A DNA stretch of 64,000 bases from Lachnospiraceae bacterium (GTDB taxonomy: Bacteria > Bacillota > Clostridia > Lachnospirales > Lachnospiraceae): NCBI GenBank assembly GCA_024687655.1, contig JAILEN010000214.1, positions 14,523 to 78,522 of the forward strand, read 5' to 3'. The notes under the pieces were generated by a model. That model saw only the letters and a program-made list of their open reading frames with translations. It did not search any database and was not told the origin of the DNA. Of this stretch, positions 199 through 23,864 are shown piece by piece. The position numbers and the translations under genes are program-made. Position 1 is the first letter of the stretch; each line of letters starts with the position of its first letter.

Positions 199-212
199 AG
201 TCAAAGGCGACT
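199..212 (+). promoter_or_regulatory. Candidate antiterminator hairpin: AGTC [AAAGGC] GACT, hexaloop with A1 and G4
   Basis: The 4-bp stem pairs 199-202 with 209-212, with loop 203-208. The 3' strand and last loop base are also the 5' arm of terminator 208-242, so the two structures exclude each other. The decamer TCAAAGGCGA (201-210) recurs at 7293-7302. Confidence 0.45.
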
Positions 213-242
213 TACAGTTTTTATGCTGTAAGTCGTTTTTTT
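208..242 (+). terminator. Rho-independent terminator between the GS-III gene and amtB-glnK
   Basis: Perfect 10-bp stem CGACTTACAG (208-217) / CTGTAAGTCG (226-235), an 8-nt loop, then seven T (236-242). Confidence 0.85.
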
Positions 243-248
243 ATAAAA

Positions 249-279
249 AGATCCTTCGGGCAAAGCCCTCAGGATGACA
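249..279 (-). repeat. Dispersed hairpin repeat, copy 1 (inverted orientation)
   Basis: The reverse complement reads TGTCATCCTGAGGGCTTTGCCCGAAGGATCT. The stem is ATCCT/AGGAT, with an inner GGGC-AAA-GCCC hairpin (258-268). Confidence 0.6.
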
Positions 280-323
280 AAAGGGGGCACCGCCCCGGGA
301 TGAAAGCGAGGGCTTCCTCTCCC

Positions 324-350
324 TGTCATCGAAAGAGTAGCGAAGGATCT
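324..350 (+). repeat. Dispersed hairpin repeat, copy 2 (degenerate)
   Basis: TGTCATCGAAAGAGTAGCGAAGGATCT. Its 3' end CGAAGGATCT (341-350) is the exact complement of AGATCCTTCG (249-258) in copy 1, and TGTCATC (324-330) pairs with GATGACA (273-279). Confidence 0.5.
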
Positions 351-372
351 TAAAAGAAAGTGAGGTAATGTT

Positions 373-2145
373 ATGGTAACACAGGAAGTTATGGATTTAG
401 TAGGCAGCGAAGTCTACGGCGTCTGGTTTCTGATCGGCGCAGCGCTGGTGTCCTGGATGCAGGCAGGATTCGCCATGTGCGAATCAGGCTTTACAAGAGC
501 AAAGAACGCAGGAAACATCATCATGAAGAACCTGATGGACTTCTGTATCGGTACTCTGATGTGGTTCATTTGCGGTGCATCCCTGATGCTGGGCGAGAAC
601 ATTTTAGGCGGCTTTGCCGGAGGCCTTACCTTTGATGTGTTCACAGGCTACGGCAGCTTTGATTATTCGGCATTTGTATTTAACCTTGTATTCTGTGCAA
701 CAACGGCAACCATCGTATCCGGTGCCATGGCAGAGAGAACAAAGTTTTCAAGCTACTGCATTTATTCGGCTATCATTTCAGCCATCATCTACCCCATAGA
801 GGCACATTGGACCTGGGGAGGCGGCTTTTTGGCACAGTGGGGCTTCCATGATTATGCAGGATCTACCTGTATCCATATGGTAGGCGGTATATGCGCCCTC
901 ATCGGTGCATGGATGCTGGGTCCCCGTATCGGTAAGTTTGAAAAGGACGGAAACGGCAAGGTAACAAAGGTAAACGCCTTCCCCGGTCACAACCTGGTAA
1001 TTGCAGCATTAGGTGTATTCATCCTATGGCTGGGCTGGTACGGCTTCAACGGAGCTGCAGCAACGGATATCGGAACACTTGGTTCCATCTTCCTTACGAC
1101 TACAGTAGCTCCCGCAGTTGCAACTGTTGTATGTATGGTATTTACATGGGTACGCTATGGTAAGCCCGATGTGTCCATGTGCTTAAACGCATCTCTGGCA
1201 GGCCTGGTAGCCATCACGGCACCCTGTGACGTAACAGACTGTGCAGGCGCAGCCATCATCGGCGCAGTAGCAGGTGTATTGGTAGTATTCGGAGTATGGT
1301 TTAACGATAACGTAACACATGTAGATGACCCCGTTGGTGCGGTTGCAGTTCATATGTTCAACGGTATCTGGGGTACTCTGGCAGTAGGCCTTTTTGCAAC
1401 AGACACAGCTCCTGGCTTTGCTGTAGCAGGCATTGAAGAGGGACTTTTCTACGGCGGCGGCCTTTCACAGCTTATCAAGCAGCTGGGCGGCGTAGCAGTA
1501 ACTGTACTTTGGACAGTAGTTACCATCACCATAGCATTTACGGTGATCAAAAAGACTATCGGACTCCGTGTCAGTGAGGAAGAGGAGATCGAAGGTCTGG
1601 ACGCTAAAGAGCACGGACTTCCCTCAGCTTATTCAGGCTTTGCCATCATGGATATTGCCAACACAATGAGCGTAAACGAGAATACCGACCTGGGCGTTGG
1701 CGAATACGAGAAGGCAAGCCCTGCAATGATCAAGGCAGCGGTTCCCGTGGAAAATCATGCAGAAACACTTCAGGGAACAAGCCTGGCAAGTGGTATCAAC
1801 AAGGTTGTTATCATTACAAAGCTCTCACGTTATGACAAGATCAAAAAGGCCCTCAACGAGCTGGGTGTTACCGGTATCACGGTTACTCAGGTTACGGGCT
1901 GTGGTATCCAAAAGGGTGCCGGCCAGATGTATCGTGGAGTTGAGATGGATCTGACACTGTTGCCCAAGATCAAGCTGGAGGTTGTGGTCAGCCACATCCC
2001 TGTGGATGATGTGATCGAAGTGGCTAAAAAGACACTTTACACCGGCAAGATCGGCGATGGTAAGATCTTTGTATATCCTGTCAGCCGCGTAGTTAAGATC
2101 CGTACAGGTGAAGAAAACGAAGAAGCTTTGCAGGATGTAGAATAA
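373..2145 (+). CDS. amtB: Ammonium transporter AmtB fused to a PII (GlnK) domain
   Basis: 590 aa. The N-terminal ~410 aa is a multi-TM Amt/Mep protein (AGFAMCESGF, HMVGGICALIGAW, GFNG). An acidic linker follows. The C-terminal ~112 aa is a PII fold (KVVIITK...VTGITVTQVTGCGIQKGAGQMYRGVEMD...GDGKIFVYPV) with a T-loop Tyr. SD GTGAGG lies upstream. Confidence 0.9.
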   Translation: MVTQEVMDLVGSEVYGVWFLIGAALVSWMQAGFAMCESGFTRAKNAGNIIMKNLMDFCIGTLMWFICGASLMLGENILGGFAGGLTFDVFTGYGSFDYSAFVFNLVFCATTATIVSGAMAERTKFSSYCIYSAIISAIIYPIEAHWTWGGGFLAQWGFHDYAGSTCIHMVGGICALIGAWMLGPRIGKFEKDGNGKVTKVNAFPGHNLVIAALGVFILWLGWYGFNGAAATDIGTLGSIFLTTTVAPAVATVVCMVFTWVRYGKPDVSMCLNASLAGLVAITAPCDVTDCAGAAIIGAVAGVLVVFGVWFNDNVTHVDDPVGAVAVHMFNGIWGTLAVGLFATDTAPGFAVAGIEEGLFYGGGLSQLIKQLGGVAVTVLWTVVTITIAFTVIKKTIGLRVSEEEEIEGLDAKEHGLPSAYSGFAIMDIANTMSVNENTDLGVGEYEKASPAMIKAAVPVENHAETLQGTSLASGINKVVIITKLSRYDKIKKALNELGVTGITVTQVTGCGIQKGAGQMYRGVEMDLTLLPKIKLEVVVSHIPVDDVIEVAKKTLYTGKIGDGKIFVYPVSRVVKIRTGEENEEALQDVE

Positions 2146-2162
2146 TATAAACAGCTATTTTA

Positions 2163-2190
2163 CAGGGGGACCTGGGTCCCCCTGCTTTTG
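2163..2190 (+). terminator. Rho-independent terminator after amtB-glnK
   Basis: CAGGGGGAC (2163-2171) / GTCCCCCTG (2176-2184), 4-nt loop, followed by CTTTTGG (short T tract). Confidence 0.7.
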
Positions 2191-2204
2191 GTTGTCAATG
2201 AATG

Positions 2205-2245
2205 GTAGGAGGTTTCCCTCCTACTCATGCTTGTTTAGGAGGAGG
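2205..2245 (+). promoter_or_regulatory. Decoy-SD / anti-SD hairpin upstream of the real SD of the next gene
   Basis: GTAGGAGG (2205-2212), loop TTTC, CCTCCTAC (2217-2224) form a perfect 8-bp hairpin. The CCTCCTA strand is also complementary to the genuine SD TAGGAGGAGG (2236-2245), which sits 6 nt before ATG 2252. Confidence 0.35.
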
Positions 2246-2251
2246 TCAGAC

Positions 2252-4831
2252 ATGGCAGCATTTGAACGTGTGCTTTCGGGGATACCGGATATGGATGTGG
2301 CACTTGATAATATCAGGCTTGGGGACAATGTGGTATGGAGGGTTTCGGATCTGTCCGAATTCAGGCTTTTCATGGAGCCCTATGTGGACCAGGCGAAAAA
2401 GGATGGCCGGAACATCATTTATTTTCGCTTTGCCAGTCATGAGCCATTAGTGGAGGACTGTCCGGAGGTAAAGACCATACATATTCCGCTTTCCCACCGT
2501 TTTGAGACCTTTACGGTGGAGATACACAACGCCATAGAAAAGGAGGGCTATGACGCCTTCTACGTTTTTGACTGCCTTTCCGAGCTTCAGACCGCCTGGG
2601 CCACGGATCTTATGATGGGTAACTTCTTCAGGGTTACCTGTCCCTTTTTGTTTATATTGGATACAGTGGCATTTTTCCCCATAATCCGCGGAAAACATTC
2701 CTTCCACGCCATTAACAAGATCCTCAACACCACACAGCTGTTTTTAGATGTGTACTCGGATGAAAAGAACACCTACGTCCGGGCTGAAAAGGTGTGGAAC
2801 AGGAACTCCGAGACCATGTTTTTGCCTCATATCTATAAAAAGGAGACGGGCAGCTTTAAGCCCATATTGGACGGGGTCCAGTCCAGCCGTTTTTATAACG
2901 TGCTAAATCATTTTCAGCGTCCGGGAGAGGAGCAGTACATCGATTCCTGGGACAGGTTTTTCGATCTGGCAAAGCTGAAATGCGATAACGGCATGGACAT
3001 CTCGGAGGAATGTAATACCATGTGCGACGTGATGATGAGCCGGGATCCGAAGATGAGGGAAATGGTAAAAAAGCATTTTACCCCCAAGGATTATTTCGAT
3101 GTCAGGGGTCATATGATAGGCACGGGGCTCATAGGCGGAAAGGCCTGCGGCATGCTCTTGTCACGCGCCATAATCCGCAACACTTCCCCTGAGATAAATG
3201 AGGTTTTGGAGCCCCATGATTCATTTTTCATGGGTTCAGACATATATTACACTTATATCGTGGACAATGAGTTCTGGGACCTGCGTGTCAGACAGAGGAC
3301 TGATGAGGAGTATTTTTCTCTGGCAGAGGAATTTGCGGACCGGCTGAAGGAAGGTACATTTTCGGAGGATATAAAAAACCAGCTCCGGCATATTTTGGAA
3401 TACTACGGTCAGGACCCCTTCATAGTCCGCTCCAGCAGTATATTAGAGGATGGCTTCGGCAATGCCTTTGCCGGCAAATATGAATCGGTTTTCTGTGCTA
3501 ACAGGGGCACCCTGGAAGAGCGGCTTTCAGAGTTTGAAGATGCCATAAGGACTGTTTATGCCAGTACCATGAGTATGTCCGCCCTGGATTACAGAAAGCG
3601 CAGGGGGCTGGATAAAAGGGATGAGCAGATGGCACTTTTGATACAGCGGGTGTCGGGATCCTATTACGGGCCTTATTATATGCCCTGTGCCGCAGGGGTG
3701 GGTTATTCCTACAGTCCCTACAAGTTTTTACAGGGTATAGACCAAAATGCGGGAATGCTGAGGCTTGTCATGGGTCTGGGGACATCCGCCGTGGACCGCA
3801 CCCAGGGCTCTTATCCCAGACTGGTATCTTTGGATATGCCCGAGGCCACTTCATCCGTCACCTGTGCGGACAAGCACCGTTTTTCACAGCGCAGGGTGGA
3901 GGTCATGGATGTGAGCGAGCATTGCTTAAAGAGGCTGGAACAGCAGGTGATAGAGGATAAGCTGCCACCTTATCTTGCCAATATTCTTTTGGAACATGAC
4001 TATGATGCGGAAAGCAGGTTCAGGGAGCGGGGCATCAACCGTTTTGTGAGATTTATCTCCTGTCTGGGACTGGTTAAAAAGAGAGATATCATGGAGCGGA
4101 TGAGGACGCTGATGCATCTGATCCAGGAGGAATACGGGCAGCCGGTGGACATCGAGTTTACCATGAACCTGTCCGATACCGGGGAATACTCCATAAACCT
4201 TCTGCAGTGCAGGCCCCTTCAGGTGTTCAAGGATACGGGGGGCGTACATGTACCCACGGACATTCCAAAGGAAAAGGTCCTGCTTGAAAGCAAGGGGGCA
4301 TCCATGGGACTGTCCCGGGATGAAAAGATAGATCTGATCGTATACGTGGATCCTGTGGGTTATTATAATATGCCCTATGTTAAAAAGGCTGAGATTGCAT
4401 CGGTGATAGGCAAGATCAACTGGAAATACCGGGAGAGCGGCAGGCATATGATGCTTCTGGTCCCCGGCCGGGTGGGTACATCCTCTCCGGAACTGGGAGT
4501 GCCTACGGCCTTTGCGGATATCAGTGAATTCGAGGTGGTATGCGAGATGGAGGAGAGGGATGCAGGTTATAATCCCGAGCTTTCCTATGGAAGCCATATC
4601 TTTCAGGATCTTGTTGAATCTGATATACTTTATACGGCAGTTTTCAAAAGTGAAAAGACATTGAGTTTTGCACCCGAAAGCATGGCTGCTTATCCTGATA
4701 TATCCGCGGACTTTGCAGATACACAGGATGTCACCCGGATAGTCAGGGTCTATGACATGTCAGATTCGGGTTGCAGGCTGTATTATGACCTGGAGGAAAA
4801 CCACCTTTTGGTTGGGATGAAACAGGGTTGA
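2252..4831 (+). CDS. PEP/pyruvate-binding (PPDK_N-like) domain protein with an uncharacterised N-terminal domain
   Basis: Start chosen at MAAFERV behind SD AGGAGGAGG. The central motif IVRSSSILEDGFGNAFAGKYESV is typical of the nucleotide-binding domain of PEP synthase/PPDK. No phosphohistidine swivel or PEP-utilising C-terminal domain was recognised. Confidence 0.65.
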   Translation: MAAFERVLSGIPDMDVALDNIRLGDNVVWRVSDLSEFRLFMEPYVDQAKKDGRNIIYFRFASHEPLVEDCPEVKTIHIPLSHRFETFTVEIHNAIEKEGYDAFYVFDCLSELQTAWATDLMMGNFFRVTCPFLFILDTVAFFPIIRGKHSFHAINKILNTTQLFLDVYSDEKNTYVRAEKVWNRNSETMFLPHIYKKETGSFKPILDGVQSSRFYNVLNHFQRPGEEQYIDSWDRFFDLAKLKCDNGMDISEECNTMCDVMMSRDPKMREMVKKHFTPKDYFDVRGHMIGTGLIGGKACGMLLSRAIIRNTSPEINEVLEPHDSFFMGSDIYYTYIVDNEFWDLRVRQRTDEEYFSLAEEFADRLKEGTFSEDIKNQLRHILEYYGQDPFIVRSSSILEDGFGNAFAGKYESVFCANRGTLEERLSEFEDAIRTVYASTMSMSALDYRKRRGLDKRDEQMALLIQRVSGSYYGPYYMPCAAGVGYSYSPYKFLQGIDQNAGMLRLVMGLGTSAVDRTQGSYPRLVSLDMPEATSSVTCADKHRFSQRRVEVMDVSEHCLKRLEQQVIEDKLPPYLANILLEHDYDAESRFRERGINRFVRFISCLGLVKKRDIMERMRTLMHLIQEEYGQPVDIEFTMNLSDTGEYSINLLQCRPLQVFKDTGGVHVPTDIPKEKVLLESKGASMGLSRDEKIDLIVYVDPVGYYNMPYVKKAEIASVIGKINWKYRESGRHMMLLVPGRVGTSSPELGVPTAFADISEFEVVCEMEERDAGYNPELSYGSHIFQDLVESDILYTAVFKSEKTLSFAPESMAAYPDISADFADTQDVTRIVRVYDMSDSGCRLYYDLEENHLLVGMKQG

Positions 4832-4842
4832 GAGGTAAAAAA

Positions 4843-6216
4843 ATGTCAGATCTACATGAGGAATGCGGAGTATTCGGTATATACTCCGAGACAAAAAAGG
4901 ATGTGGCCTGGGACGTCTATTGCGGGCTTTTTTCCCTGCAGCACAGGGGCCAGGAAGCGGCTGGTATCGCCGTAAATGAGGACAGGAATATATGTTATCA
5001 CAAGGGGCTGGGCCTGGTGCATGAGGTTTTTGACAGGGATGAGCTTAGCAGGCTGGGCCAGGGACAGATCGCCGTGGGGCATGTGCGGTATGCCACTACA
5101 GGAGACGGGGATGTGAGAAATGCCCAGCCCATGGTGGTGAGGCATATAAAGGGCCAGCTGGCTGTCTGCCACAACGGCAATCTCGTCAATTCAAAGGAGC
5201 TTCGTAGTGAATTAGAGCTTAAGGGCTGCATCTTCCACACCACCAGCGATACGGAGGTCATCTCCTATATAATCACACAAAAAAGGCTGGTGACGCCATC
5301 CATTGAGGAAGCGGTATGCGAGGCCATGAAGGAGATAAGGGGCGCATATTCCCTGGTTATGATGTCCCCGGCGAAGCTTATTGCCTGCCGTGATCCCTGG
5401 GGCTTTAGGCCCCTTTGCATGGGAAGGACCCCCGATGGGGACATAGTCTTTTCTTCGGAGACCTGTGGACTGGATACCATCGGCGCAGAGTTTATAAGGG
5501 ATATAAAGCCCGGTGAAATAGTAGTGGTGGATGAAAAGGGCATCCGATCCATCACAACACACTGTGATGAACAAAAGCCGGCGCTCTGCGTTTTTGAATA
5601 CATTTATTTTGCCCGGCCTGACTCTGTCATTGAGGGAATGTCGGTACATGAGTCGAGAAAGCTGGCGGGACGATATCTGGCAAAGTCCCATCCGGTGGAT
5701 GCGGATATAGTGGTTGGTGTTCCGGACTCCGGACTGGATGCGGCGCTGGGCTATTCTGAGGAGGCAGGTATCCCATATGAAATGGGGCTTATCCGAAACA
5801 AGTATATAGGCCGTACATTTATCGCTCCGGAGGAAAGCGGCCGGGGCGGACAGGTGGACTTAAAGCTCAATGCTGCCTCTGCAGTGGTAAAGGGTAAACG
5901 AGTGGTTTTAATAGACGATTCCATTGTCCGGGGTACTACCTCGGCACGTATTGTAAGGATGCTTAAAAATGCCGGGGCTAAGGAAGTACATATGCGCATA
6001 TCCTCACCGCCGTTTTTGCACCCCTGCTATTATGGCACTGATGTGGATTCGGATAAGGGGCTTATTGCAAAATCCCACACGGTGGAGGAAATATGTGATA
6101 TAATCGGGGCAGATTCCCTGGGATATCTGTCCATGGAGGATGCGCTTCATCTGGTGACCGATCGTGCTCCGGATACATTTTGTGCAGCCTGCTTTAAGGG
6201 GGATTATCCGGCTTGA
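4843..6216 (+). CDS. purF: Amidophosphoribosyltransferase (glutamine PRPP amidotransferase)
   Basis: MSDLHEE-CGVFGI gives a propeptide followed by the N-terminal nucleophile Cys. Also present are the PRTase motif VVLIDDSIVRGTT and C-terminal Cys residues (CAACFKGDYP) as in Fe-S type PurF. Confidence 0.9.
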   Translation: MSDLHEECGVFGIYSETKKDVAWDVYCGLFSLQHRGQEAAGIAVNEDRNICYHKGLGLVHEVFDRDELSRLGQGQIAVGHVRYATTGDGDVRNAQPMVVRHIKGQLAVCHNGNLVNSKELRSELELKGCIFHTTSDTEVISYIITQKRLVTPSIEEAVCEAMKEIRGAYSLVMMSPAKLIACRDPWGFRPLCMGRTPDGDIVFSSETCGLDTIGAEFIRDIKPGEIVVVDEKGIRSITTHCDEQKPALCVFEYIYFARPDSVIEGMSVHESRKLAGRYLAKSHPVDADIVVGVPDSGLDAALGYSEEAGIPYEMGLIRNKYIGRTFIAPEESGRGGQVDLKLNAASAVVKGKRVVLIDDSIVRGTTSARIVRMLKNAGAKEVHMRISSPPFLHPCYYGTDVDSDKGLIAKSHTVEEICDIIGADSLGYLSMEDALHLVTDRAPDTFCAACFKGDYPA

Positions 6217-6267
6217 TACGGATGGCTTGAATTGAGAAGTGTTGATTGAGGAAATGGGAGGTAGGTT

Positions 6268-7239
6268 ATGAAAATTGGGATCTTGGGTTGTGGAAGGATA
6301 GCAGAGCTTTTGGCGGGCACTTTTAATGCCATGCCGGAACTGGATTGCCATGCAGTGGCTTCCAGGAGTCTTAAAAAGGCAGAGGAGTTTGCAAGAAACA
6401 ATGGTTTTAAAAAGGGATACGGCAGCTACGAGGAGCTGGTGAGCGACCCGGAGGTGGAGCTTATCTATGTGGCCACGCCCCACTCGAGACATTTTGAGGA
6501 TATGAAGCTTTGCATCGAGCATAAAAAGCCGGTGGTATGTGAAAAGTCATTTACCTTGAATGCCGGGGAGGCAGAGGAGATAATCAGACTTTCCGAAGAA
6601 AACGGCGTGTATGTGGCTGAAGCGATCTGGACCAGATATATGCCGTCCAGAAAGCTCATCGATGATATGATCGCATCGGGGATCATCGGCGAGGCCAAGA
6701 TGCTTACGGCAAATCTTTCATATAAGATAGATGATAAGGAGAGGATCCTGGATCCAAAGCTTGCAGGAGGCGCGCTTTTGGATGTGGGAGTCTATGGAAT
6801 CAATTTTGCGTTCATGCATTTTGGCAACGATTACAGGAGTATAGATTCATCCGTTATCATGACTGACACCGGGGTTGACGGCTCCGAGTCCATCACCATA
6901 CATTATAATGATGGCAGGATGGCGGTTCTGACCCACGGCGTATATGCCAGATCTGACCGCAAGGGGATAATATACGGAGAAAAGGGCTATATCATTGTGG
7001 AAAACATCAATAATCCTCAGTTGATATGTGCATATGATGACGAGGATAATCTGATAAAAAAGGTGGATGTGCCCGCCCAGATCAGCGGATATGAATATGA
7101 ATTCCTGGAGGCAATAAAGAGGATCGGAGAGGGTGCGTGCGAGAGCTTATCCATGCCGCACAGCCAGACACTCTTTGTGATGAGAGCCATGGATGAGATA
7201 CGTTCATCCTGGGGCCTTAAGTATCCGAAGGAGGCCTGA
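6268..7239 (+). CDS. Gfo/Idh/MocA family NAD(P)-dependent oxidoreductase
   Basis: N-terminal Rossmann MKIGILGCGRIA and the EKP-type motif VVCEKSF. 323 aa with SD GGGAGG. Confidence 0.8.
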   Translation: MKIGILGCGRIAELLAGTFNAMPELDCHAVASRSLKKAEEFARNNGFKKGYGSYEELVSDPEVELIYVATPHSRHFEDMKLCIEHKKPVVCEKSFTLNAGEAEEIIRLSEENGVYVAEAIWTRYMPSRKLIDDMIASGIIGEAKMLTANLSYKIDDKERILDPKLAGGALLDVGVYGINFAFMHFGNDYRSIDSSVIMTDTGVDGSESITIHYNDGRMAVLTHGVYARSDRKGIIYGEKGYIIVENINNPQLICAYDDEDNLIKKVDVPAQISGYEYEFLEAIKRIGEGACESLSMPHSQTLFVMRAMDEIRSSWGLKYPKEA

Positions 7240-7251
7240 GCAATTTTTCCT

Positions 7252-7278
7252 TGACACTTTAAAAAATTATGATATTAT
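7252..7278 (+). promoter_or_regulatory. Putative sigma-A promoter for pyrG (TTGACA ... TGaTATTAT)
   Basis: -35 TTGACA at 7252-7257 and extended -10 TG-a-TATTAT at 7270-7278. The spacer is only about 15 nt, so confidence is moderate. Confidence 0.4.
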
Positions 7279-7288
7279 TCTGTGTAGA

Positions 7289-7306
7289 GAAATCAAAGGC
7301 GATTTC
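7289..7306 (+). promoter_or_regulatory. Candidate antiterminator hairpin: GAAATC [AAAGGC] GATTTC
   Basis: Perfect 6-bp stem with hexaloop AAAGGC (7295-7300; A1, G4). Bases 7297-7306 are also the 5' arm of terminator 7297-7337. The decamer TCAAAGGCGA is the same as at 201-210. Confidence 0.5.
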
Positions 7307-7337
7307 CGGATTTATTCTGGAAGTCGCCTCTTTTTTA
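7297..7337 (+). terminator. Leader (attenuator) terminator upstream of pyrG
   Basis: AGGCGATTTCCGGA (7297-7310) pairs with TCTGGAAGTCGCCT (7316-7329), about 14 bp including two G-U pairs, with loop TTTAT. C plus six T (7330-7336) follow. It lies 40 nt upstream of the pyrG ATG. Confidence 0.85.
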
Positions 7338-7377
7338 TGCTTAAAGGACCCTGAGGGTCATGGGAAGGAGAGCAAAA

Positions 7378-9054
7378 ATGGGAGAAAAAAACACGAAGTA
7401 TATCTTTGTGACCGGCGGTGTGGTATCGGGTCTCGGAAAGGGGATCACGGCAGCATCACTGGGACGTCTTTTAAAAATGAGGGGCTTAAAGATCGCCTCA
7501 CAGAAGCTGGATCCCTATATGAATGTGGATCCGGGGACCATGAGCCCCTATCAGCACGGTGAAGTCTTTGTGACGGATGACGGAGCGGAGACGGATCTGG
7601 ATCTGGGACACTACGAGCGTTTTATAGATGAGAGCTTAAACCGCTATTCCAATCTTACCAGCGGAAAGGTTTACTGGAACGTTTTAAGCCGCGAGCGCGC
7701 GGGAGAATATCTGGGGGATACAGTACAGGTCATTCCCCATATCACGGACGAGATCAAGCATTTTATTTATATGGGAGCAGAGAGCACCGATGCCGACATT
7801 TTGATCACGGAGATCGGCGGCACCACAGGTGATATCGAAAGCCAGCCCTTTTTGGAGGCCATCCGTCAGGTGAGCCTGGAGGTGGGCAAGGAAAACTGCC
7901 TTTTCATCCACGTGACCCTGGTTCCCTATCTGTCAGGTTCGGAGGAGCACAAGTCAAAGCCTACCCAGCATTCCGTAAAGGAACTCATGTCCCAGGGGAT
8001 CCATCCGGACATTATCGTTCCCAGAGTGGACCGCCCCATGGAGCAGAGCATCCGGGATAAGATAGCACTGTTTTGTAATGTTAAAAAGGATTGCGTCATA
8101 GAAAATGACACAGTAGGCACACTGTATGAGGCACCTCTGATGCTCCATGAGCACGGCCTGGACGAGGTGGTGTGCAGGGAACTGGGCATCTGGTCAGCGA
8201 AGCCGGATATGACCCGCTGGCAGGGTCTTATTAACAGGATTAATGGCCTGTCCCACAGGGTCACCATTGCGATAGTAGGAAAATATGTGGCCCTTCACGA
8301 CGCATACTTATCAGTCAGGGAAGCCCTGTATCACGGAGGTTACGAGAGCGATGCCCATGTGGACATCATGTGGGTGGATTCCGAGACCATCAATGATGAA
8401 AACGTGGCGGATGTCCTTAAGGAGGCAGATGGTATTTTAGTACCGGGAGGCTTCGGAGACAGGGGTATCCTGGGCAAGATCATAGCCTGCAGATACGCCA
8501 GGGAAAATGACATTCCCTACCTGGGGATCTGCCTGGGCATGCAGGTAGCCGTCATAGAATATGCAAGAAACGTATTAAAGATAGCAGACGCCAACAGCCG
8601 TGAGTTTGATCCCAGAGGTGAGCATCTGGTGATCGACCTTATGGAGGATCAGAGAAAGGTGGAGAAAAAGGGCGGCACCATGAGACTGGGAGCCTATCCC
8701 TGCAAGGTGGTGGAAGGAACCATCTTGGACAAGGCATATTTCTCAGAAGAAGAGTCGGTGCGTGAAAGTATCAACGCAGGACATATCACGGACAAGGGTG
8801 AGCGCATCATATCCGAGCGTCACCGCCACCGTTTTGAGTTCAACAATGAATACAGGGACGAGATGATCGAGTCGGGACTGGTAATAAGTGGTACCTCACC
8901 GGATAAAAACATAGTAGAGGTTGTTGAGGAACCGAAGAACCGCTTCCATGTTGGAGTGCAGTTCCATCCCGAGTTTAAGAGCCGTCCCAACCGTGCACAT
9001 CCGCTGTTCAGGGAGTTTATCCGGGCGGCAGTAAAAGGAGATAACAATGATTGA
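7378..9054 (+). CDS. pyrG: CTP synthase
   Basis: [23 protein letters not shown]..., with GATase motifs GICLGMQ and QFHPEF. SD GGAAGGAG lies upstream of ATG 7378. Confidence 0.95.
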
Positions 9055-12000
9055 GGAAAAGAACGCAAAAAGAGCAGGGCTTTATGATCCGTCATTTGAG
9101 CACGACGCCTGCGGTATAGGTGCCGTGGTAAATATTAAGGGAAAGAAGTCTTATCAGACAGTATCCGATGCTTTGTCTATCGTAGAAAACCTTGAGCATC
9201 GTGCGGGAAAGGACGCTACCGGGGAGACCGGTGACGGCGTGGGTATCCTACTACAGATATCTCATAAGTTTTTCAAAAAAGCCACTGCAAAAGCCGGCAT
9301 ATCTATAAAGGATGAGCAGGACTATGGTATCGGCATGTTCTTTTTCCCTCAGAATGAGAGAGACAGGAACCGCGCCAAGAAGATGTTTGAGATAATCACG
9401 GAAAAAGAGGGACTTAAGTTTTTAGGCTGGCGTGAGGTCCCCGTGGCGGAAAACGTGCTGGGAAGCCGTGCCAGAGAATGCATGCCCTCCATAGTCCAGG
9501 GCTTTGTGGAGAGGCCCTCCGACGTGGAAAAGGGTCTGGACTTTGACCGTAAGCTCTATGTTTTAAGGCGCCTGTTTGAGCAGACCAATGATGAAAATAC
9601 CTATGTGGCATCCCTTTCTTCCCGTACCATCGTGTATAAGGGAATGTTTTTGGTGGGACAGCTCCGCACCTTCTATAATGACCTGACGGACCCGGATTAT
9701 GAGGCGGCCATCGCTCTGGTGCACAGCCGTTTTTCCACCAATACCACACCCAGCTGGGAGCGCGCACATCCCTACAGGCTCATCGTTCACAACGGTGAGA
9801 TCAATACAATAAAGGGTAATGCGGACAAGATGATCGCCCGTGAGGAGACCCTTTCCTCGCCCTATCTGGAAAATGACATGGCAAAGATCCTGCCGGCCAT
9901 CTCCGCATCGGGATCCGATTCAGCCATGCTGGATAACACCCTTGAGTTTTTGATGATGAACGGCATGGAGCTTCCTCTGGCCATGATGATCACTGTCCCC
10001 GAGCCCTGGTCGAAAAACAATGCCATGGACCCGGCCCGCAGGGATTTTTACGAGTATTACGCCACCATGATGGAGCCCTGGGACGGCCCCGCATCCATCC
10101 TGTTTTCCGATGGAGATATCATGGGTGCCATTCTTGACAGAAACGGCCTGCGGCCCTCCAGATATTACGTTACCACAGATGATAACCTCATCCTTTCATC
10201 AGAGGTGGGCGTCCTTCCCATTCCCGAAGAGAATATCGTTAAAAAGGACAGGATGAAGCCCGGCAAGATGCTTTTGGTGGATACAGTAGAGGGCAAGCTT
10301 GTCGAGGATGATGAGCTAAAGCATCGCTTCACCTCCCGCAATCCATATGGCCAGTGGCTGGACCAGAACCTGGTGAATTTAAGCGAGCTTCATATCCCCA
10401 ATATCAAGGTTGAGGAATATGATGAAAAGACACGCCTGAGCCTCCAGAAGGCCTTTGGCTATTCCTATGAGGACGTAAAGGAGACCATCCTTCCCATGGC
10501 CCGTGACGGTTCCGAGGCAATAGGCGCCATGGGGCTTGACGTGCCTCTGGCAGCCCTTCAAAAGGATGCTCATCTGCCACTTTTCGACTATTTCAAGCAG
10601 AGATTTGCCCAGGTTACGAATCCCCCCATAGATTCCATCAGGGAGGATGTCGTGACGGCTACCACCATATTTTTGGGAACTGCCGGGAATGTGCTTAACG
10701 AGGATGAGAAAAACTGTCACTGCCTGCGCATCAACAATCCAATCCTTACCAACACCGACCTTTTGAAGATAAAGAGCATTACGGCAGAGGGCTTCAAGCC
10801 CGTCACCATACCTATCATATACTACAAGAACACTTCACTGAAAAAAGCAGTGGAGCACCTTTTCGTAGAGGCCGACAGGGCCCATAAGGACGGCGCCAAC
10901 ATACTGATACTGTCCGATCGCGGCGTAGATGAAAACCACGTGGCGATCCCCTCCCTTCTTGCAGTATCGGCGCTCCAGCACCATTTGGTGGTCACCAAAA
11001 AGCGCACCCAGCTTTCTGTGATCATCGAAAGCGGAGAACCCAGAAGCGTTCACCACTTTGCCACGCTTCTGGGCTATGGTGCATCCGCTGTATGTCCCTA
11101 TCTGGCACTGGATAGCATCCACGAGCTCATTGATAACGGGCTTTTGGACAAGGACTACTATGCAGCGGTTGATGACTACAACAATTCCGTCATCACGGGC
11201 ATTATAAAGATCGCTTCAAAAATGGGTATTTCCACCATCCAGTCTTATCAGGGTGCCAAGATATTTGAGTGTATCGGTATCCATCCGGATGTGGTAAACA
11301 CCTATTTTGAGGGCACATTAAGCCGTATCGGCGGCATCAGTCTTTCTGATATCGAAAAGGATGTGGAGACCCTTCACGACAAGGCCTTTGATCCCCTGGG
11401 ACTGTCCGTTGATGAGACACTGGGTTCTGCCGGTGATCACAAGCTTCGTGCAAAAGGAGAGCGGCATCTGTATACTCCCGAGACCATCCATCTTTTGCAG
11501 CACTCTACCCGTACCGGGGACTATGGACTGTTTAAAGAGTTTACAAAGCGGGTGAATGATGAGAACCGGCCCTATGCTCTCCGCGGCCTTTTGGAGTTTG
11601 TTCCTCCTGAAAAGGGTATATCCGTAGACGAGGTGGAGTCAGTGGATTCCATTGTAAAGAGGTTTAAGACAGGAGCCATGTCCTACGGTTCCATTTCACA
11701 GGAGGCCCATGAGACCCTTGCTGTGGCCATGAATTCACTTCACGGCAAGTCGAATACCGGTGAGGGAGGAGAGTCTGACGACAGGCTGGGTGACCCGAAG
11801 CGCTGCTCAGCCATCAAGCAGGTGGCGTCCGGACGTTTTGGAGTCACCTCAAAGTATCTGGTATCCGCTCAGGAACTACAGATCAAGATGGCCCAGGGAG
11901 CCAAGCCCGGTGAGGGCGGACATCTCCCCGGTAAAAAGGTATATCCCTGGATAGCTAAGACCAGGCTTTCAACCCCCGGCGTATCCCTGATATCACCGCC

Positions 12001-13576
12001 GCCTCATCACGACATCTATTCCATCGAGGATCTGGCGGAGCTAATTTATGATCTTAAAAATGCCAATAAAAACGCACGTATATCCGTAAAGCTGGTTTCT
12101 GAAGCCGGCGTGGGAACTGTTGCAAGCGGTGTGGCCAAGGCAGGCGCACAGGTGATCCTCATCTCCGGTTATGACGGAGGTACGGGAGCTGCTCCGGTCA
12201 CCTCCATACATAATGCGGGACTGCCCTGGGAGCTGGGACTGGCAGAGACGCATCAGACCCTTATCAGAAACGGACTGAGAAACCGTGTGATAATAGAAAC
12301 GGACGGAAAGCTGTTATCAGGCCGTGACGTGGCCATAGCAGCCATCCTGGGAGCCGAGGAGTTTGGCTTTGCCACTGGCCCCCTTGTGACCATGGGCTGC
12401 GTGATGATGAGAGTATGTAACAAGGACACCTGTCCCGTAGGAGTAGCCACCCAGAATCCCGAGCTTCGCAAGCGGTTTGCAGGAAAACCGGAGTACGTGG
12501 TAAACTTCATGCGTTTTGTAGCAGAGGAGCTGCGTGAGTATATGGCCATGCTGGGTGTACGCACAGTGGACGAGCTGGTGGGCAGGACAGACCTGATCCG
12601 TGTCAGGGAAAATGCTTCCCTGGATCTGTCCCAGGTGATCTGCGGCGGCTTTGAGGGCGAGATCAGAGATGAAAGCGCCACGATCTACGACAAGAAGGAT
12701 GTGTATGATTTCAAGCTGGCCAGGACCTTGGATGAAAGAACACTGATTAAGAAGCTGGATCCTGCCAAGAACGGTGCGGCCGGCGGCAGTGTATCCTGCG
12801 ATGTGACCAATAACGATAGAGCTTTCGGAACCCTTTTGGGTGCAGAGATAACCAGAAGCTGCGGAGACGACCTTCCGGAGGATACCTATAAAGTATCCAG
12901 CCGGGGTGCAGGCGGCCAGTCCTTTGGAGCATTCATCCCCAAGGGCCTTACCATAAGCCTCATCGGTGACAGTAACGACTATTTCGGCAAGGGCTTATCC
13001 GGCGGAAAGCTTATCATTGCTCCCGCAAAGGAAGCTGCCTACGAGGCCGACAAAAATATCATAATCGGAAACGTGGCGCTCTACGGAGCCACCTCGGGCA
13101 CAGCCTATATCAGCGGTGTGGCCGGAGAGAGATTTGCGGTCAGAAACTCCGGAGCTACAGCAGTGGTAGAGGGTTGCGGAGATCATGGCTGCGAGTACAT
13201 GACAGGAGGCCGGGTGGCCATCCTGGGTGAAGTGGGCAAGAACTTTGCCGCAGGTATGAGCGGTGGAATCGCCTATGTTTTGGATCCCGACGATTCCCTG
13301 TACAAGAGGCTTAACAAGGCCATGGTTTCTCTTGAGCCAGTAACCGACAAATACGATGTTCAGGAGCTTAAGACCCTGATAGAAGGGCATGTGGCCGCCA
13401 CAGGTTCCAAAAAGGGTGCCGAGATCCTTAAAGGTTTTGCGGATTACCTGAAGCACTTTAAAAAGGTCATCCCTCATGATTACAAGAAGATGATAGAGAT
13501 GGTGGCACAGATGGAAAAGAAGGGTCTCTCACATGAGCAGGCCGAGATCGAAGCCTTTGAGCTTCTGACAAAGTGA
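9047..13576 (+). CDS. gltB: Glutamate synthase large subunit
   Basis: 1509 aa. It has the N-terminal Ntn amidotransferase start ...[12 protein letters not shown]/Fe-S central domains, and a C-terminal GXGXG beta-helix ([10 protein letters not shown]...). It overlaps pyrG by 8 nt. Confidence 0.95.
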
Positions 13577-13585
13577 GGTACCGGT

Positions 13586-15103
13586 ATGGGAAAAGCAACA
13601 GGATTTTTAGAATATGAAAGAGTGGAATCAAAGGCAGTGCCGCCTCTGGAGAGGATAAACGGCTGGAATGAATTCCACATCATGCTAAGCCAAAAGGAAC
13701 AGACAAAGCAGGGCGCCAGATGCATGGACTGTGGCGTGCCCTTCTGCCAGTACGGTGAAGCCATAAGCGGCATGACCAGCGGCTGTCCCCTTCACAATCT
13801 GATCCCCGAGTGGAATGATATGGTATGCAGGGGAAATTACGAACAGGCCTATCCCAGGCTTAAAAGGACCAGCAACTTTCCTGAGTTTACCTGTCGTGTA
13901 TGTCCGGCACTTTGTGAAAAGGCCTGCACCTGCGGCCTGTATGACGAGCCAGTATCCACACGGGAAAACGAGAGAGCCATAATAGAGTATGCATATGAAA
14001 ACGGTCTGGCAAAGGCAGAGCCTCCGAAGACCAGGACAAAAAAGAAGGTGGCGGTGATAGGCTCCGGCCCCGCCGGCCTGGCCGTGGCTGACGATCTGAA
14101 CCGTCGCGGTCATTTGGTTACCGTATATGAGAGAAATGACAGGGTGGGAGGTCTTTTGCGATACGGCATCCCCAACATGAAGCTGGAAAAGTGGGTCATT
14201 GACCGGAAGCTTGAGATAATGGCACAGGAGGGCATAGAGTTTGTGACGAACACCGATATTGGTAAGGATATCAAGGCTTCGGACCTGTTAAAGGACTATG
14301 ATGCCGTGGTGGTGGCAACCGGTACTCCAAACCCCAGGAACATCGAGGCTCCCGGAAGGGATGCGCAGGGGATCTATTTTGCAGTGGATTATCTGACAGA
14401 CGCCACCAGGCAGCTTTATGAGGAAAAGCTGGTGGAGGATAAATTCCATGTGGATGGGGACAAGCCTGCTTCACAGAAGCTTTCCGCCAAAGATAAGGAT
14501 GTGATCGTAATTGGCGGAGGCGATACAGGAAATGACTGCGTGGGAACGGCCATCCGTCAGGGCGCAAGGAGCGTGACCCAGCTGGAGATGATGCCACAGC
14601 CTCCTGTTAGCAGACGTGACAGTAATCCATGGCCGCAGTGGCCGCTGGTTTTAAAAACGGACTACGGTCAGGAGGAAGCCATTGCCGTGTTCGGGGCAGA
14701 TCCCCGGATCTATCAGACCACGGTAAAAGAGTTTAAAAAGGATAAAAAAGGAAATGTGAAGTCCGCAGTTTTGGTATCCCTTGAGTCAAAGACAGACGAG
14801 GCTACGGGACGGCGGATGATGGTGCCGGTGGAGGGCAGCGAGCGTGAGGTAAAGGCATCTTTGGTCCTCATAGCCGCAGGTTTTCTGGGGTCCGATAAAA
14901 AGCTGGCGGATGCTTTTGGCGTGACCCTGGACGGACGCACCAATTTTGAGGGAATAAAAGGAACACATAAGACGTCGGGAGATAAGATATTCACTGCAGG
15001 GGATGCCCACACGGGACAGTCACTGGTGGTCAAGGCCATTGCGGACGGCAAAGCCTGCGCCCGGGAAATTGATGAGTTTTTGATGGGATATTCCAATCTG
15101 TAA
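13586..15103 (+). CDS. gltD: Glutamate synthase small subunit (NAD(P)H-dependent)
   Basis: Cys clusters (CMDCGVPFC, CPLHN), the dinucleotide fold VAVIGSGPAGLA, and 505 aa. It starts 9 nt after gltB. Confidence 0.9.
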   Translation: MGKATGFLEYERVESKAVPPLERINGWNEFHIMLSQKEQTKQGARCMDCGVPFCQYGEAISGMTSGCPLHNLIPEWNDMVCRGNYEQAYPRLKRTSNFPEFTCRVCPALCEKACTCGLYDEPVSTRENERAIIEYAYENGLAKAEPPKTRTKKKVAVIGSGPAGLAVADDLNRRGHLVTVYERNDRVGGLLRYGIPNMKLEKWVIDRKLEIMAQEGIEFVTNTDIGKDIKASDLLKDYDAVVVATGTPNPRNIEAPGRDAQGIYFAVDYLTDATRQLYEEKLVEDKFHVDGDKPASQKLSAKDKDVIVIGGGDTGNDCVGTAIRQGARSVTQLEMMPQPPVSRRDSNPWPQWPLVLKTDYGQEEAIAVFGADPRIYQTTVKEFKKDKKGNVKSAVLVSLESKTDEATGRRMMVPVEGSEREVKASLVLIAAGFLGSDKKLADAFGVTLDGRTNFEGIKGTHKTSGDKIFTAGDAHTGQSLVVKAIADGKACAREIDEFLMGYSNL

Positions 15104-15152
15104 TGGTATAATGGTTCAGACGTGGACCAATCAGTACTAACGGAGGTTTATT

Positions 15153-16403
15153 ATGACTGACATAACCATAGATGAAGTAATGGAGTTCATTGAGGAAAAC
15201 GATGTGAAGTTCATCCGCCTTGCATTCTGTGATTACTACGGAGATCAGAAGAATGTGTCGGTTATGCCTGATGAGCTTAAAAAGGCTGCCGAGCGAGGGG
15301 AGCCCTTTGACTCCTTCAGGATAGCGGGCTTTGATGATCACGACAATCAGGATCTGTTTTTGCGCCCTGATCTGTCCACCATGTGTATTTTGCCCTGGAG
15401 ACCCCAGGAGGGCAGGGTGCTCAGGTTTTATTGTGACGTCATCAAGTCAGATGGCTCCTGCTATGAGCTGGATCCCAGAAAGCTTTTAAAGGAGGCGGTA
15501 AATGACTGCAAGCGTCTGGGCTTCAAGCCCCGTATCGGTCTCAACTCCGAGTTTTACCTCTTCCGTACTGATGACGAAGATAATCCCACGGATGTGCCCT
15601 GGGACAACGGTTCCTGCTATGATATCGCCCCTAAGGATCGTGGAGAAAACATCCGCCGTGATATCTGCCTTACCATGGAGGAGATGGGGATCCGTCCTGA
15701 GAAATCCTACCATGAAAACGGCCCGGGCCAGAATGAGATCGATTTTGAAGAGGATTCCGCACTGCATACCGCGGATAACTTTATCACTTATAAAAATGTA
15801 GTGGGTGCTGTATCTGCCAGAAACGGTATCTATGCATCCTTTGCACCGAAGCCCCTGCCGGATGAGAGCGGTAACGGACTCCATATCAAGATGTCCCTTT
15901 TTGACGGGGGAGTCAACATCATCGACAAGGATCCGGATACGGCGGAAAGCTTTACCGCAGGCGTATTGAACCGTATGCGTGATATAACCGTTTTTTTGAA
16001 CACCCAGTCATCTTCCTATGACCGTTTCGGTCAGGGGGAGGCGCCGAAGCATATCACATGGTCCATGCAAAACCGTTCCAGGCTTTTACGTATCCCGGTG
16101 GTAAACGGCAAGAGGGCGGGCTTTATCCTGCGTTCCCCCGACTCCGGCATCAATCCGTATCTGGCCTTTACCGTGCTTATACGTGCCGGGCTGGCCGGGA
16201 TCAAAAACAAAGAGAAGCTTCCCTCACCGGTGGACAAGTCATGGCGCCGCCTGACAGAGGATGAAAAGGCCTCATATCAGAAGCTTCCCATGTCATTGGA
16301 GGAGGCCATTGACTGTGCCAAAAACAGTGAGTTTTTAAACAACGACGACTCCCTTCGTGACATAGTGGAGCGTTTTCTTTCGGTGCTGTCATCCCGTTCT
16401 TAG
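15153..16403 (+). CDS. glnA: Glutamine synthetase, type I-like (short, 416 aa)
   Basis: An N-terminal beta-grasp (VKFIRLAFCDYYG) and catalytic-domain motifs YHENGPGQNEIDF, FAPKPL..GNGLHIKMSLF and LRIP. Confidence 0.8.
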   Translation: MTDITIDEVMEFIEENDVKFIRLAFCDYYGDQKNVSVMPDELKKAAERGEPFDSFRIAGFDDHDNQDLFLRPDLSTMCILPWRPQEGRVLRFYCDVIKSDGSCYELDPRKLLKEAVNDCKRLGFKPRIGLNSEFYLFRTDDEDNPTDVPWDNGSCYDIAPKDRGENIRRDICLTMEEMGIRPEKSYHENGPGQNEIDFEEDSALHTADNFITYKNVVGAVSARNGIYASFAPKPLPDESGNGLHIKMSLFDGGVNIIDKDPDTAESFTAGVLNRMRDITVFLNTQSSSYDRFGQGEAPKHITWSMQNRSRLLRIPVVNGKRAGFILRSPDSGINPYLAFTVLIRAGLAGIKNKEKLPSPVDKSWRRLTEDEKASYQKLPMSLEEAIDCAKNSEFLNNDDSLRDIVERFLSVLSSRS

Positions 16404-16430
16404 ACTACTTAGTTTTACCCGTTATATCCC

Positions 16431-16480
16431 GCTCAGTGACAGCCTACAACTCCTGTCACTCTGAGCGAAGCGAAGAGTCT
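16431..16480 (+). repeat. Dispersed hairpin repeat, copy 3, preceded by a partial inverted copy
   Basis: The unit is TGTCACTCTGAGCGAAGCGAAGAGTCT (16454-16480), with internal stem ACTCT/AGAGT. GCTCAGTGACAG (16431-16442) pairs with CTGTCACTCTGAGC (16453-16466). Confidence 0.55.
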
Positions 16481-16534
16481 TTTACCTAACGTACAATGAT
16501 TTTGATCAATGGTGATCGTATAAAGGAGACATAG

Positions 16535-17101
16535 ATGGAGCAGGTGCTTTTAGTCTGCGATTCTGAAAAAGCCACGGAATTCTGCCGGGACGTCCTGAAA
16601 AAGCAGGGCTACCCGGATGTTTTCGTGTGCAAAAACGGACCGGAAGCCAAGCGCCGCCTTTTGGAGTTCGATTACGATTTCACGCTGATAAACGCCCCCC
16701 TTCGCATGGAATCTTCCGAGGGAGTGGCCATAGACATAGCGGAAAAAAACGTAAGCCAGGTCATCCTTCTGGTAAATGGCGAGCATTTTGACGAGGTTCA
16801 CGCCCATACCAGGGATTATGGAGTTATCACCGTAACGAAACCCATACATGCAAGAGACATGGCAATGGCCATAGATTTTTCGCATATTGCACAAAGTCGC
16901 ATCAAAATGTTGATGCAGGAGAACAAAAAGTTACAAAAAAAGATGAATGAGTTAAAATTTATTAACCATGCGAAGATTCTTTTGGTACAATATGAAGAGC
17001 TGACGGAGGAAGAGGCCCACAAGAAGATAGAGCGGCAGGCCATGGATGAGCGCAAGAGCCGTGTGTTGGTTTCAAAGGAGATAATAGACAAATATGAATA
17101 A
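16535..17101 (+). CDS. ANTAR-domain RNA-binding antiterminator with a pseudo-receiver domain
   Basis: The C-terminus KFINHAKILLVQYEELTEEEAHKKIERQAMDERKSRVLVSKEII matches the ANTAR three-helix pattern. The N-terminus is a CheY-like fold, but the position aligned to the phospho-Asp reads LINAPL (Asn). Confidence 0.8.
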   Translation: MEQVLLVCDSEKATEFCRDVLKKQGYPDVFVCKNGPEAKRRLLEFDYDFTLINAPLRMESSEGVAIDIAEKNVSQVILLVNGEHFDEVHAHTRDYGVITVTKPIHARDMAMAIDFSHIAQSRIKMLMQENKKLQKKMNELKFINHAKILLVQYEELTEEEAHKKIERQAMDERKSRVLVSKEIIDKYE

Positions 17102-18200: not shown

Positions 18201-18201
18201 T

Positions 18202-23846: not shown

Positions 23847-23864
23847 CGGACCGGAGGATCTTTT

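Follow-up and report, generated by a model that had tools for sequence, protein, structure and literature searches.

In the window (the whole 64-kb stretch of Lachnospiraceae DNA that was analysed), the leader of the pyrG operon carries a small hexaloop hairpin that shares bases with a strong intrinsic terminator. We consider it probable that this element is a transcription attenuator under the control of a NitR-type ANTAR antiterminator, a candidate for which is encoded within the same operon. A sister element stands in the amtB leader, and the match between the two leaders is far beyond chance.

The pyrG and amtB leaders

The promoter of the pyrG operon is near-consensus (11/12 matches, 16-nt spacer, extended -10 of the form TG-n-TATTAT), and from it the transcript start is predicted at about 7285 (7284-7287). 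Ten nucleotides separate the -10 box from the hairpin, a perfect 6-bp stem (arms GAAATC at 7289-7294 and GATTTC at 7301-7306) that closes through the pair C7294-G7301 on the hexaloop AAAGGC (7295-7300; A1 = 7295, G4 = 7298). The terminator downstream has arms AGGCGATTTCCGGA/TCTGGAAGTCGCCT (7297-7329; 14 pairs, 7 of them G-C) followed by CTTTTTT, has a minimum free energy of -26.1 kcal/mol (z = -5.7) and was the top-ranked terminator-like site in a scan of the first 20 kb. Because its 5' arm takes in the loop bases AGGC and the entire 3' arm of the hairpin, the hairpin and the terminator are mutually exclusive. On its own the hairpin is worth -4.8 kcal/mol; when it was enforced in the leader, the fold came to -8.4 versus -23.9 kcal/mol, and of the terminator stem no more than 4 bp remained. 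The pyrG ATG at 7378 lies 41 nt past the U tract. The list of open reading frames puts the start at an in-frame ATG at 7360, whereas the ribosome-binding site GGAAGGAGAG and the N-terminus of PyrG favour 7378.

The amtB leader is built in the same way. Its hairpin, AGTC[AAAGGC]GACT (199-212), has a 4-bp stem and a hexaloop at 203-208, begins 40 nt past the stop codon of glnN (type III glutamine synthetase) and overlaps the 5' arm of its terminator in the arrangement described for the pyrG leader. The terminator fold has a free energy of -22.1 kcal/mol (z = -5.2) and the hairpin alone -2.8 kcal/mol; with the hairpin enforced, a 6-bp AU-rich terminator remnant stays behind. Across the two leaders, enforcing the hairpin costs 12-15 kcal/mol relative to the terminator fold. 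Given this cost and the weakness of the hairpin alone, the default state of both leaders is expected to be termination.

The window holds just two exact copies of the decamer TCAAAGGCGA, one starting at 201 and one at 7293, each within a leader, against about 0.1 expected. An earlier note on this DNA, made from the letters alone, had described the decamer as common to the amtB and pyrG leaders, had given coordinates and sequences for the pyrG hairpin and terminator, had placed a putative promoter upstream of them and had read the genes as pyrG-gltB-gltD-glnA. All of this was confirmed, the gene order by Pfam and the remainder from the sequence, with the promoter resolved to 7251-7278. Positions of the features are collected in Table 1; genes of the operon that runs from pyrG to carB are tightly spaced or overlapping.

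Table 1. Features of the two leaders and of the operons behind them (positions in the window)
Feature	Position	Strand	Basis or details
Sister attenuator (putative), glnN-amtB intergenic region	199..247	+	hairpin 199-212, terminator 203-240, then U tract
Operon behind sister attenuator	373..7239	+	Pfam
amtB-glnK fusion	373-2145	+	Pfam
PPDK_N-domain protein	2192-4831	+	Pfam
purF-like amidotransferase	4828-6216	+	Pfam
GFO/IDH/MocA oxidoreductase	6268-7239	+	Pfam
Sigma-70-type promoter, pyrG operon	7251..7278	+	TTGACA 7251-7256, TG 7270-7271, TATTAT 7273-7278
Putative antiterminator hairpin GAAAUC[AAAGGC]GAUUUC	7289..7306	+	folding, covariation, covariance model, published octamer
Intrinsic terminator, pyrG leader	7297..7337	+	stem 7297-7310 with 7316-7329, loop 7311-7315, U tract 7330-7337
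Operon pyrG...carB (probably regulated)	7378..21384	+	Pfam
pyrG	7378-9054	+	Pfam
gltB	9047-13576	+	Pfam
gltD	13586-15103	+	Pfam
glnA	15153-16403	+	Pfam
REC-ANTAR (NitR-like) gene, candidate trans-acting factor	16535-17101	+	PF00072 + PF03861
carA, overlaps ANTAR stop codon	17094-18200	+	Pfam
carB	18202-21384	+	Pfam

Conservation of the element and the genes behind it

Conservation was followed in 80 loci from species-representative genomes (Lachnospiraceae, Pseudobutyrivibrio, Roseburia, Oscillospiraceae and Clostridium), all of which had been picked for encoding a relative of the window's ANTAR protein. These loci hold about 110 hairpins of the C[AAAGGC]G type, whose stems covary and each of which overlaps a terminator, and they bear out the view of the earlier note that the resemblance of the two leaders is no coincidence. 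When every A..G.. hexaloop hairpin that shares bases with a terminator was admitted, 81 sequences yielded 156 candidates, 59 of them with the loop AAAGGC. The comparison with a covariance model that the note had proposed was made with a model of 94 related hairpins: it picked out only two sites in the window, the pyrG leader at 23.6 bits and the amtB leader at 20.2 bits, and the next-best site reached 13.8 bits.

As an unbiased measure, copies of the octamer CAAAGGCG were counted: there are 137 in 1.44 Mb, whereas twelve controls matched for composition give 18-80. Stems of 4 bp or more surround 85/137 copies (controls 0-5), and a stem together with a strict terminator is found at 61 (controls 0-1). 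The remaining stemmed copies mostly have long, bulged or imperfect terminators, and the roughly 50 stemless copies correspond to control-level background. Within the 94 distinct hairpins, loop positions A1 and G4 and the closing C-G pair are invariant and A2 and G5 are at least 90% conserved, while stem pairs 2-4 each take 3-6 pair types; the covariation score is 0.743 versus 0.199 for shuffles and 0.07-0.17 for slid registers, in a set that was partly selected for pairing and to which the octamer count is the unbiased counterpart. Orthologous leaders also show a compensatory change, in which the loop AAAGGC goes with a terminator 3' arm CGCC and the loop AATGGG with CCCC.

Our first terminator filter was too strict and missed long or bulged terminators, so that the 25 loci in which it left no site are an overestimate; the covariance model recovered variant sites in at least ten of them and added the loop variants AAGGGC, AATGGC and AAAGAC before glnA and amtB. 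The module precedes nitrogen-assimilation operons in at least 56/80 related loci, to which the covariance model adds variant sites in about ten more. A search of the 64-kb window with the families of Rfam 15, the PyrR binding site and the glutamine riboswitch among them, gave zero matches at the gathering threshold. In permissive scans of both leaders every listed match fell well short of the gathering score of its family, and these were mostly eukaryotic chance matches; PyrR, the bacterial cis-regulatory family considered, scored 15 bits versus a gathering score of 54 (E = 9.3).

The first gene downstream was assigned for 109 sites. It is gltB at 23, asnB and amtB-glnK at 20 each, glnN (type III glutamine synthetase) at 16, glnA at 15, asnA at 8, pyrG at 3, purF at 1 and an unclassified open reading frame at 3; apart from these three, every first downstream gene is a nitrogen-assimilation or amidotransferase gene. 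Sites also occur within operons where there is no promoter, for example between glnN and amtB. Cultured relatives such as Pseudobutyrivibrio xylanivorans and Roseburia lenta have these sites too. In this way sequence alone serves to define the nitrogen regulon of a broad set of Clostridia from gut and rumen (Lachnospiraceae, Oscillospiraceae, Clostridium), in which a single antiterminator would govern the uptake of ammonium, GS/GOGAT, the synthesis of asparagine and several enzymes that use glutamine, CTP synthase among them. The suggestion of the note that one factor controls both window leaders is supported by the position of the module at nitrogen operons, by its covarying stems around a fixed loop and closing pair, by its ANTAR-type loop and by the ANTAR gene within the operon.

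Where the note spoke of a pyrG leader, the description holds for the window, in which the element does precede pyrG, but the element is really the leader of a gltBD-glnA-nitR operon, and pyrG is its first gene in this lineage only. The same GAAATC stem stands before pyrG in two loci (L001 and L002), before gltB in two others (L008 and L073) and before purF in one (L058). In 32/80 loci pyrG lies directly 3' of the ANTAR gene, and on L170, an independent contig from a metagenome, pyrG likewise stands behind a promoter and the hairpin. Among the observations that the note had named as speaking against it were a decamer common outside leaders and a hairpin missing from the pyrG leaders of close relatives. 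Across the 80 loci, octamer copies outside leaders are present only at background, and the hairpin is found before pyrG in the closest relatives, L001 and L002.

The candidate regulator and competing explanations

The octamer CAAAGGCG is identical to the ANTAR hexaloop of three published seeds (PMC3369931 Fig S1, Ramesh et al.), namely nasF P2, GGAU[AAAGGC]GUCC; Enterococcus faecalis eutA P2, UUAAGC[AAAGGC]GCUUAA; and Listeria monocytogenes eutG P1, GGUAC[AAAGGC]GUACU. Metagenomes were also scanned for the octamer with CGCCTTTTT (terminator) behind it, and ANTAR genes were no criterion. Many chance matches with 1-bp stems came up, and only stems of at least 4 bp are informative; those with real stems lay in leaders of genes for nrtA-like nitrate-binding proteins, nirB, a narK-type transporter, a CN-hydrolase (amiE family) and eutH. 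Leaders of these kinds belong to the classical NasR/NasT, AmiR and EutV regulons.

The product of the gene at 16535-17101 has 188 aa, comprises a REC and an ANTAR domain and is homologous in alignments to Rv1626, EutV and AmiR. Five of its residues, K147, E158, H162, M170 and R173, correspond to EutV K149, E160, Y164, M172 and R175 and are invariant in the family; in EutV the counterparts hold G4 and plug the loop. Asn53, invariant across the family alignment, stands in the place of the phospho-acceptor Asp, and the receiver is therefore a pseudo-receiver that cannot be phosphorylated. The gene directly 5' of the ANTAR gene is glnA in 76/76 loci. In the Lachnospiraceae clade, GlnA appears to have lost two catalytic metal ligands, with N at the E129 position and I at the E357 position, and it may have turned into a pseudoenzyme that serves only to sense glutamine. 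The constant pairing of glnA with nitR suggests that a protein acts here as the sensor of an RNA-binding regulator, an idea that the apparent loss of metal ligands strengthens. A further hexaloop hairpin, TGATC[AATGGT]GATCG (16503-16518), lies 16 nt 5' of the ANTAR start and was considered as an autoregulatory site; it is unconserved even in the closest relatives and was dropped.

The hairpin might instead be recognised by a factor other than an ANTAR protein (a PII/GlnK domain, GlnA or another RNA-binding protein) or might itself be a tiny riboswitch. In its favour, the linkage of the sites to glnA and the PII genes is no looser than their linkage to the ANTAR gene. We nevertheless hold it to be unlikely: the loop and closing pair are identical to those of experimentally defined ANTAR hexaloops, A1 and G4, the bases that ANTAR needs, are precisely the invariant loop positions, 18 nt of hairpin leave too little room for the ligand pocket of a riboswitch, and no Rfam family matches at its gathering threshold.

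It is less likely still that these are ordinary operon-end or leaky terminators whose small hairpin is a by-product devoid of any regulatory role. The site at 199-247, standing 40 nt past the glnN stop codon, could be there just to end glnN. However, the terminator at 7297-7337 lies between a promoter and pyrG and so does not mark the end of a preceding gene, and the explanation leaves the invariant asymmetric loop and the covarying stems of some 110 sites unaccounted for.

Leaders of pyrG with terminators are known in Firmicutes, and with pyrG as the first gene past the terminator a pyrG-specific, CTP-sensing attenuator like that of Bacillus subtilis or Lactococcus comes to mind, in which G residues are added reiteratively at the 5' end and the poly-G pairs with the terminator. 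We judge this highly improbable, since the predicted initial transcript, GTGTAGAG..., does not start with GGGC, the terminator 5' arm AGGCGAUUUCC has no C/U tract with which poly-G could pair, the same leader precedes gltB (L008, L073) and purF (L058), and the same hexaloop precedes amtB, asnB, asnA, glnN and glnA. Equally improbable is that positions +1 to +20 hold a DNA operator, to which a transcription factor, for instance a GlnR/TnrA-like repressor, would bind: directly 3' of the -10 box in many loci, the element does occupy a typical repressor position, but its arms covary and its asymmetric centre is conserved, where a dimeric operator would show the reverse, and it is strictly strand-specific, always coupled to a terminator and also present inside operons where there is no promoter (glnN-amtB).

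On the preferred reading, attenuation under a NitR-type ANTAR protein, transcription would begin at about 7285, and the first 20 nt or so of RNA could form the weak hairpin GAAAUC[AAAGGC]GAUUUC. Unaided, the RNA would refold into the far more stable terminator (7297-7329 plus the U tract), and polymerase would halt 41 nt before pyrG. We infer that the protein binds the leader hairpin, as the matching loop and protein residues suggest: an active REC-ANTAR dimer (16535-17101) would bind the hexaloop and upper stem, reading loop bases A1 and G4, and the bound hairpin would keep hold of the terminator 5' arm, which would permit read-through into pyrG-gltBD-glnA-nitR-carAB. The same protein would act likewise on the identical hexaloop of the amtB leader, and in relatives its counterparts would act on the asnB, asnA, glnN, gltB, glnA and purF leaders, so that the sites together would make up a nitrogen-assimilation and glutamine-amidotransferase regulon. 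With the ANTAR gene behind the attenuator, this regulon would be positively autoregulated, and a NitR that opens the terminator before its own gene would depend on basal expression from leakage or from an internal promoter.

The activity of the REC-ANTAR protein is probably set by a partner protein, for which GlnA, encoded directly upstream, would be the best candidate. GlnA would report glutamine or nitrogen status, and read-through would take place when nitrogen is scarce; both the direction of the response and the sensor role are suggested by the gene content and by the Clostridium literature. There is precedent for such an arrangement in AmiC-AmiR and NasS-NasT, where a non-phosphorylated ANTAR protein is kept inactive by a ligand-sensing partner. 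The window's protein resembles AmiR and NasT in having a receiver that lacks the phospho-acceptor Asp (Asn53) and a candidate partner gene that is invariably adjacent, but here the neighbour is a glutamine-synthetase homologue and not a periplasmic-binding-protein-like sensor. By pure analogy, the glutamine synthetase of Bacillus subtilis reports glutamine status to the nitrogen regulators TnrA and GlnR by contact; those are DNA-binding proteins, whereas the regulator proposed here would bind RNA.

A single hairpin near the predicted RNA 5' end

The EutV targets are eut leaders of Enterococcus and Listeria, and the NasR target is the nasF leader of Klebsiella. The leaders described here are like the targets of EutV, NasR, NasT and AmiR in their A1/G4 hexaloop on a short stem of free sequence, in the terminator overlap, in the nitrogen-related genes behind them and in an ANTAR gene that adjoins or sits inside the regulated operon. 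Both window leaders have the hexaloop with A1 and G4, a stem of free sequence of at least 3 pairs (6 bp in the pyrG leader, 4 bp in the amtB leader) and a hairpin that overlaps the terminator 5' arm as P2 does, and the ANTAR gene is nearby, inside the regulated operon. The tandem of P1 and P2 joined by a short linker is absent. In contrast to the dual-hexaloop targets of Ramesh et al. (2012), there is one hairpin, a few nucleotides from the predicted 5' end of the RNA. By the definition of the dual-hairpin family the leader element, though an attenuator of the ANTAR type, does not qualify as a full member.

A search for P1 in the 60 nt upstream of all 109 sites found candidates at 20/109 versus 17 expected from shuffles, that is, no enrichment. 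Most of these candidates are the TTGACA promoter box read as a hairpin; a convincing P1 was present at only two sites (in L019 and L024) and at none of the other 107. A strong promoter precedes 59 sites, and at 36 of these the hairpin follows the end of the -10 box by 5-14 nt, which leaves no room for P1. As a positive control, the same procedure readily detects a strong P1 in the proteobacterial nas/nir leaders of the metagenome scan, and the negative outcome at the 109 sites is therefore meaningful.

EutV antitermination needs both hairpins in vivo and in vitro (PMC3369931, PMC8934654), and deletion of P1 abolishes it (PMC3369931). Walshe et al. (PMC8934654) found that the ANTAR dimer contacts one hexaloop, left unexplained why two are needed and raised the possibility of single-hexaloop sites in settings free of a race with polymerase. 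Only dual hairpins are listed in a 2025 review, and these Lachnospiraceae leaders were not reported in the dual-hairpin search of 2012. A single-hairpin target contradicts the only mechanistic model tested so far, and a second, unrecognised determinant may be needed. In the literature searched, which covered NitR through later papers, nothing further came up on NitR, on single-hairpin ANTAR targets or on an ANTAR protein paired with a glutamine synthetase; older work on NitR may already describe the single hairpin.

The closest known system is that of Clostridium. PMC6316151 and PMC4676874 describe NitR as an antiterminator of the ANTAR type through which GS/GOGAT genes are induced when nitrogen is limiting; according to the same papers, which cite Stutz et al. 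2007, NitR (formerly GlnR) of C. saccharobutylicum and C. acetobutylicum is encoded in a glnA-nitR operon and acts on glnA and gltAB by antitermination. The loci studied here share with that system the order of glnA directly followed by the REC-ANTAR gene (76/76 loci) and GS/GOGAT genes as targets, which stand behind terminators at the gltB (23) and glnA (15) sites. They differ in that the genes behind the sites also include pyrG, purF, carAB, amtB-glnK, asnA/asnB and glnN, and in the GlnA of the Lachnospiraceae clade, which is short of two metal-ligand residues.

Taking these features together, we put forward, tentatively and with somewhat less than even confidence, that the sites represent a large class of ANTAR antiterminator targets in which a single hexaloop at the RNA 5' end suffices and P1 is dispensable, with a non-phosphorylatable NitR set by the adjacent GlnA, which may be a pseudoenzyme, and a regulon that reaches past GS/GOGAT to the glutamine amidotransferases of nucleotide and arginine synthesis (pyrG, purF and carAB). 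With more than 100 natural single-hairpin, terminator-coupled sites, the question of why two hairpins are needed can be put to a direct test that takes just an RNA of 20 nt and a single small protein. The single hairpin is also found in Clostridium sensu stricto, in three loci (L068, L075 and L078), where it precedes glnA, asnA-glnN or glnN (L068), and glt genes.

Attenuator arrangements in relatives and in the amtB leader

Among the 80 related loci encoding relatives of the ANTAR protein NitR (L001-L080), glnN is preceded in L019 and L024 by a tandem pair of complete attenuators. The second shows the canonical two-hairpin arrangement, in which the upstream hairpin, (TT)CTGC[AATGGT]GCAG(GA), has a 6-bp stem in L019 and a 4-bp stem in L024 and is followed, 19 nt later, by TGCAC[AATGGC]GTGTA. 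Thus, single- and dual-hairpin forms occur side by side under one regulator.

The amtB leader of the window contains a further element, a very stable branched fold closed by AAGATCCTTCG/CGAAGGATCTT (-47.1 kcal/mol, z = -3.1), which had no match in Rfam. It looks like a lineage-specific insertion, because the same terminator-to-ribosome-binding-site interval spans just 22-60 nt in relatives.

Coordinates of the features described in this part
Feature	Location	Remarks
Tandem complete attenuators (two) before glnN	L019 4418-4560; L024 4429-4570	
Branched structure	window 248-351	between amtB-leader terminator and amtB ribosome-binding site
glnA	window 15153-16403	adjoins ANTAR gene; product short, 416 aa
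carA-carB	window 17094-21384	carA start 8 nt before ANTAR-gene stop codon; carB directly after
Remainder of amtB-glnK operon	window 2192-7239	order PPDK_N protein, purF-like, GFO/IDH/MocA
Hairpin before 369-aa protein	L053 18481; L057 15688; also L119	some Oscillospiraceae
GGDEF-domain protein	window 22629-23846	
Radical SAM protein	window 23865-24914	
Tyrosine recombinase, phage-integrase family	window 24900-25934	minus strand

GlnA and the spacer preceding the ANTAR gene

GlnA residues were mapped by using glutamine synthetase motifs together with alignment to PDB 8s59, and on this basis we take E129 and E357 to be n2-metal ligands of active glutamine synthetases. Across the glnA genes compared in L001-L080, the Lachnospiraceae clade has N, K or R at the E129 position (ExEFF motif; LNSEFYLF in the window, aa 130-137) and I or V at the E357 position (RxExR motif; GFILRSPD, aa 323-330). 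E/D and E, respectively, are retained in GlnA of the Oscillospiraceae and Clostridium relatives. In the Lachnospiraceae clade, NitR may thus have in this GlnA a sensor partner without catalytic activity.

The 131-nt spacer between glnA and the ANTAR gene contains a 12-13-bp inverted repeat, GCTCAGTGACAG...CTGTCACTCTGAGC. An ANTAR-like hexaloop hairpin, TGATC[AATGGT]GATCG (16503-16518), lies 16 nt 5' of the ANTAR start codon and has no terminator; it is probably a chance occurrence, since none of the relatives conserves it.

Passenger, candidate and neighboring genes

Given the overlap of carA with the ANTAR gene and the position of carB, the carbamoyl-phosphate synthetase genes and pyrG-gltBD-glnA-nitR seem to share one transcript controlled by a single attenuator. 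In the sister operon, amtB-glnK is followed by an 879-aa protein whose sole domain is PPDK_N (pyruvate phosphate dikinase ATP-binding), then by a purF-like amidophosphoribosyltransferase and a GFO/IDH/MocA oxidoreductase, together an unusual passenger set for an ammonium-transporter operon.

The 369-aa protein encoded downstream of the hairpin in some Oscillospiraceae (L053 and L057, also L119) had no Pfam match. Its N-terminus is Cys-rich, and it carries an SGGKDS PP-loop-like motif. The regulon may include this protein as an amidotransferase or ATP-pyrophosphatase that is so far uncharacterised.

Directly beyond the nitrogen cluster, at 22629-25934 of the window, lie GGDEF, radical SAM and recombinase genes.
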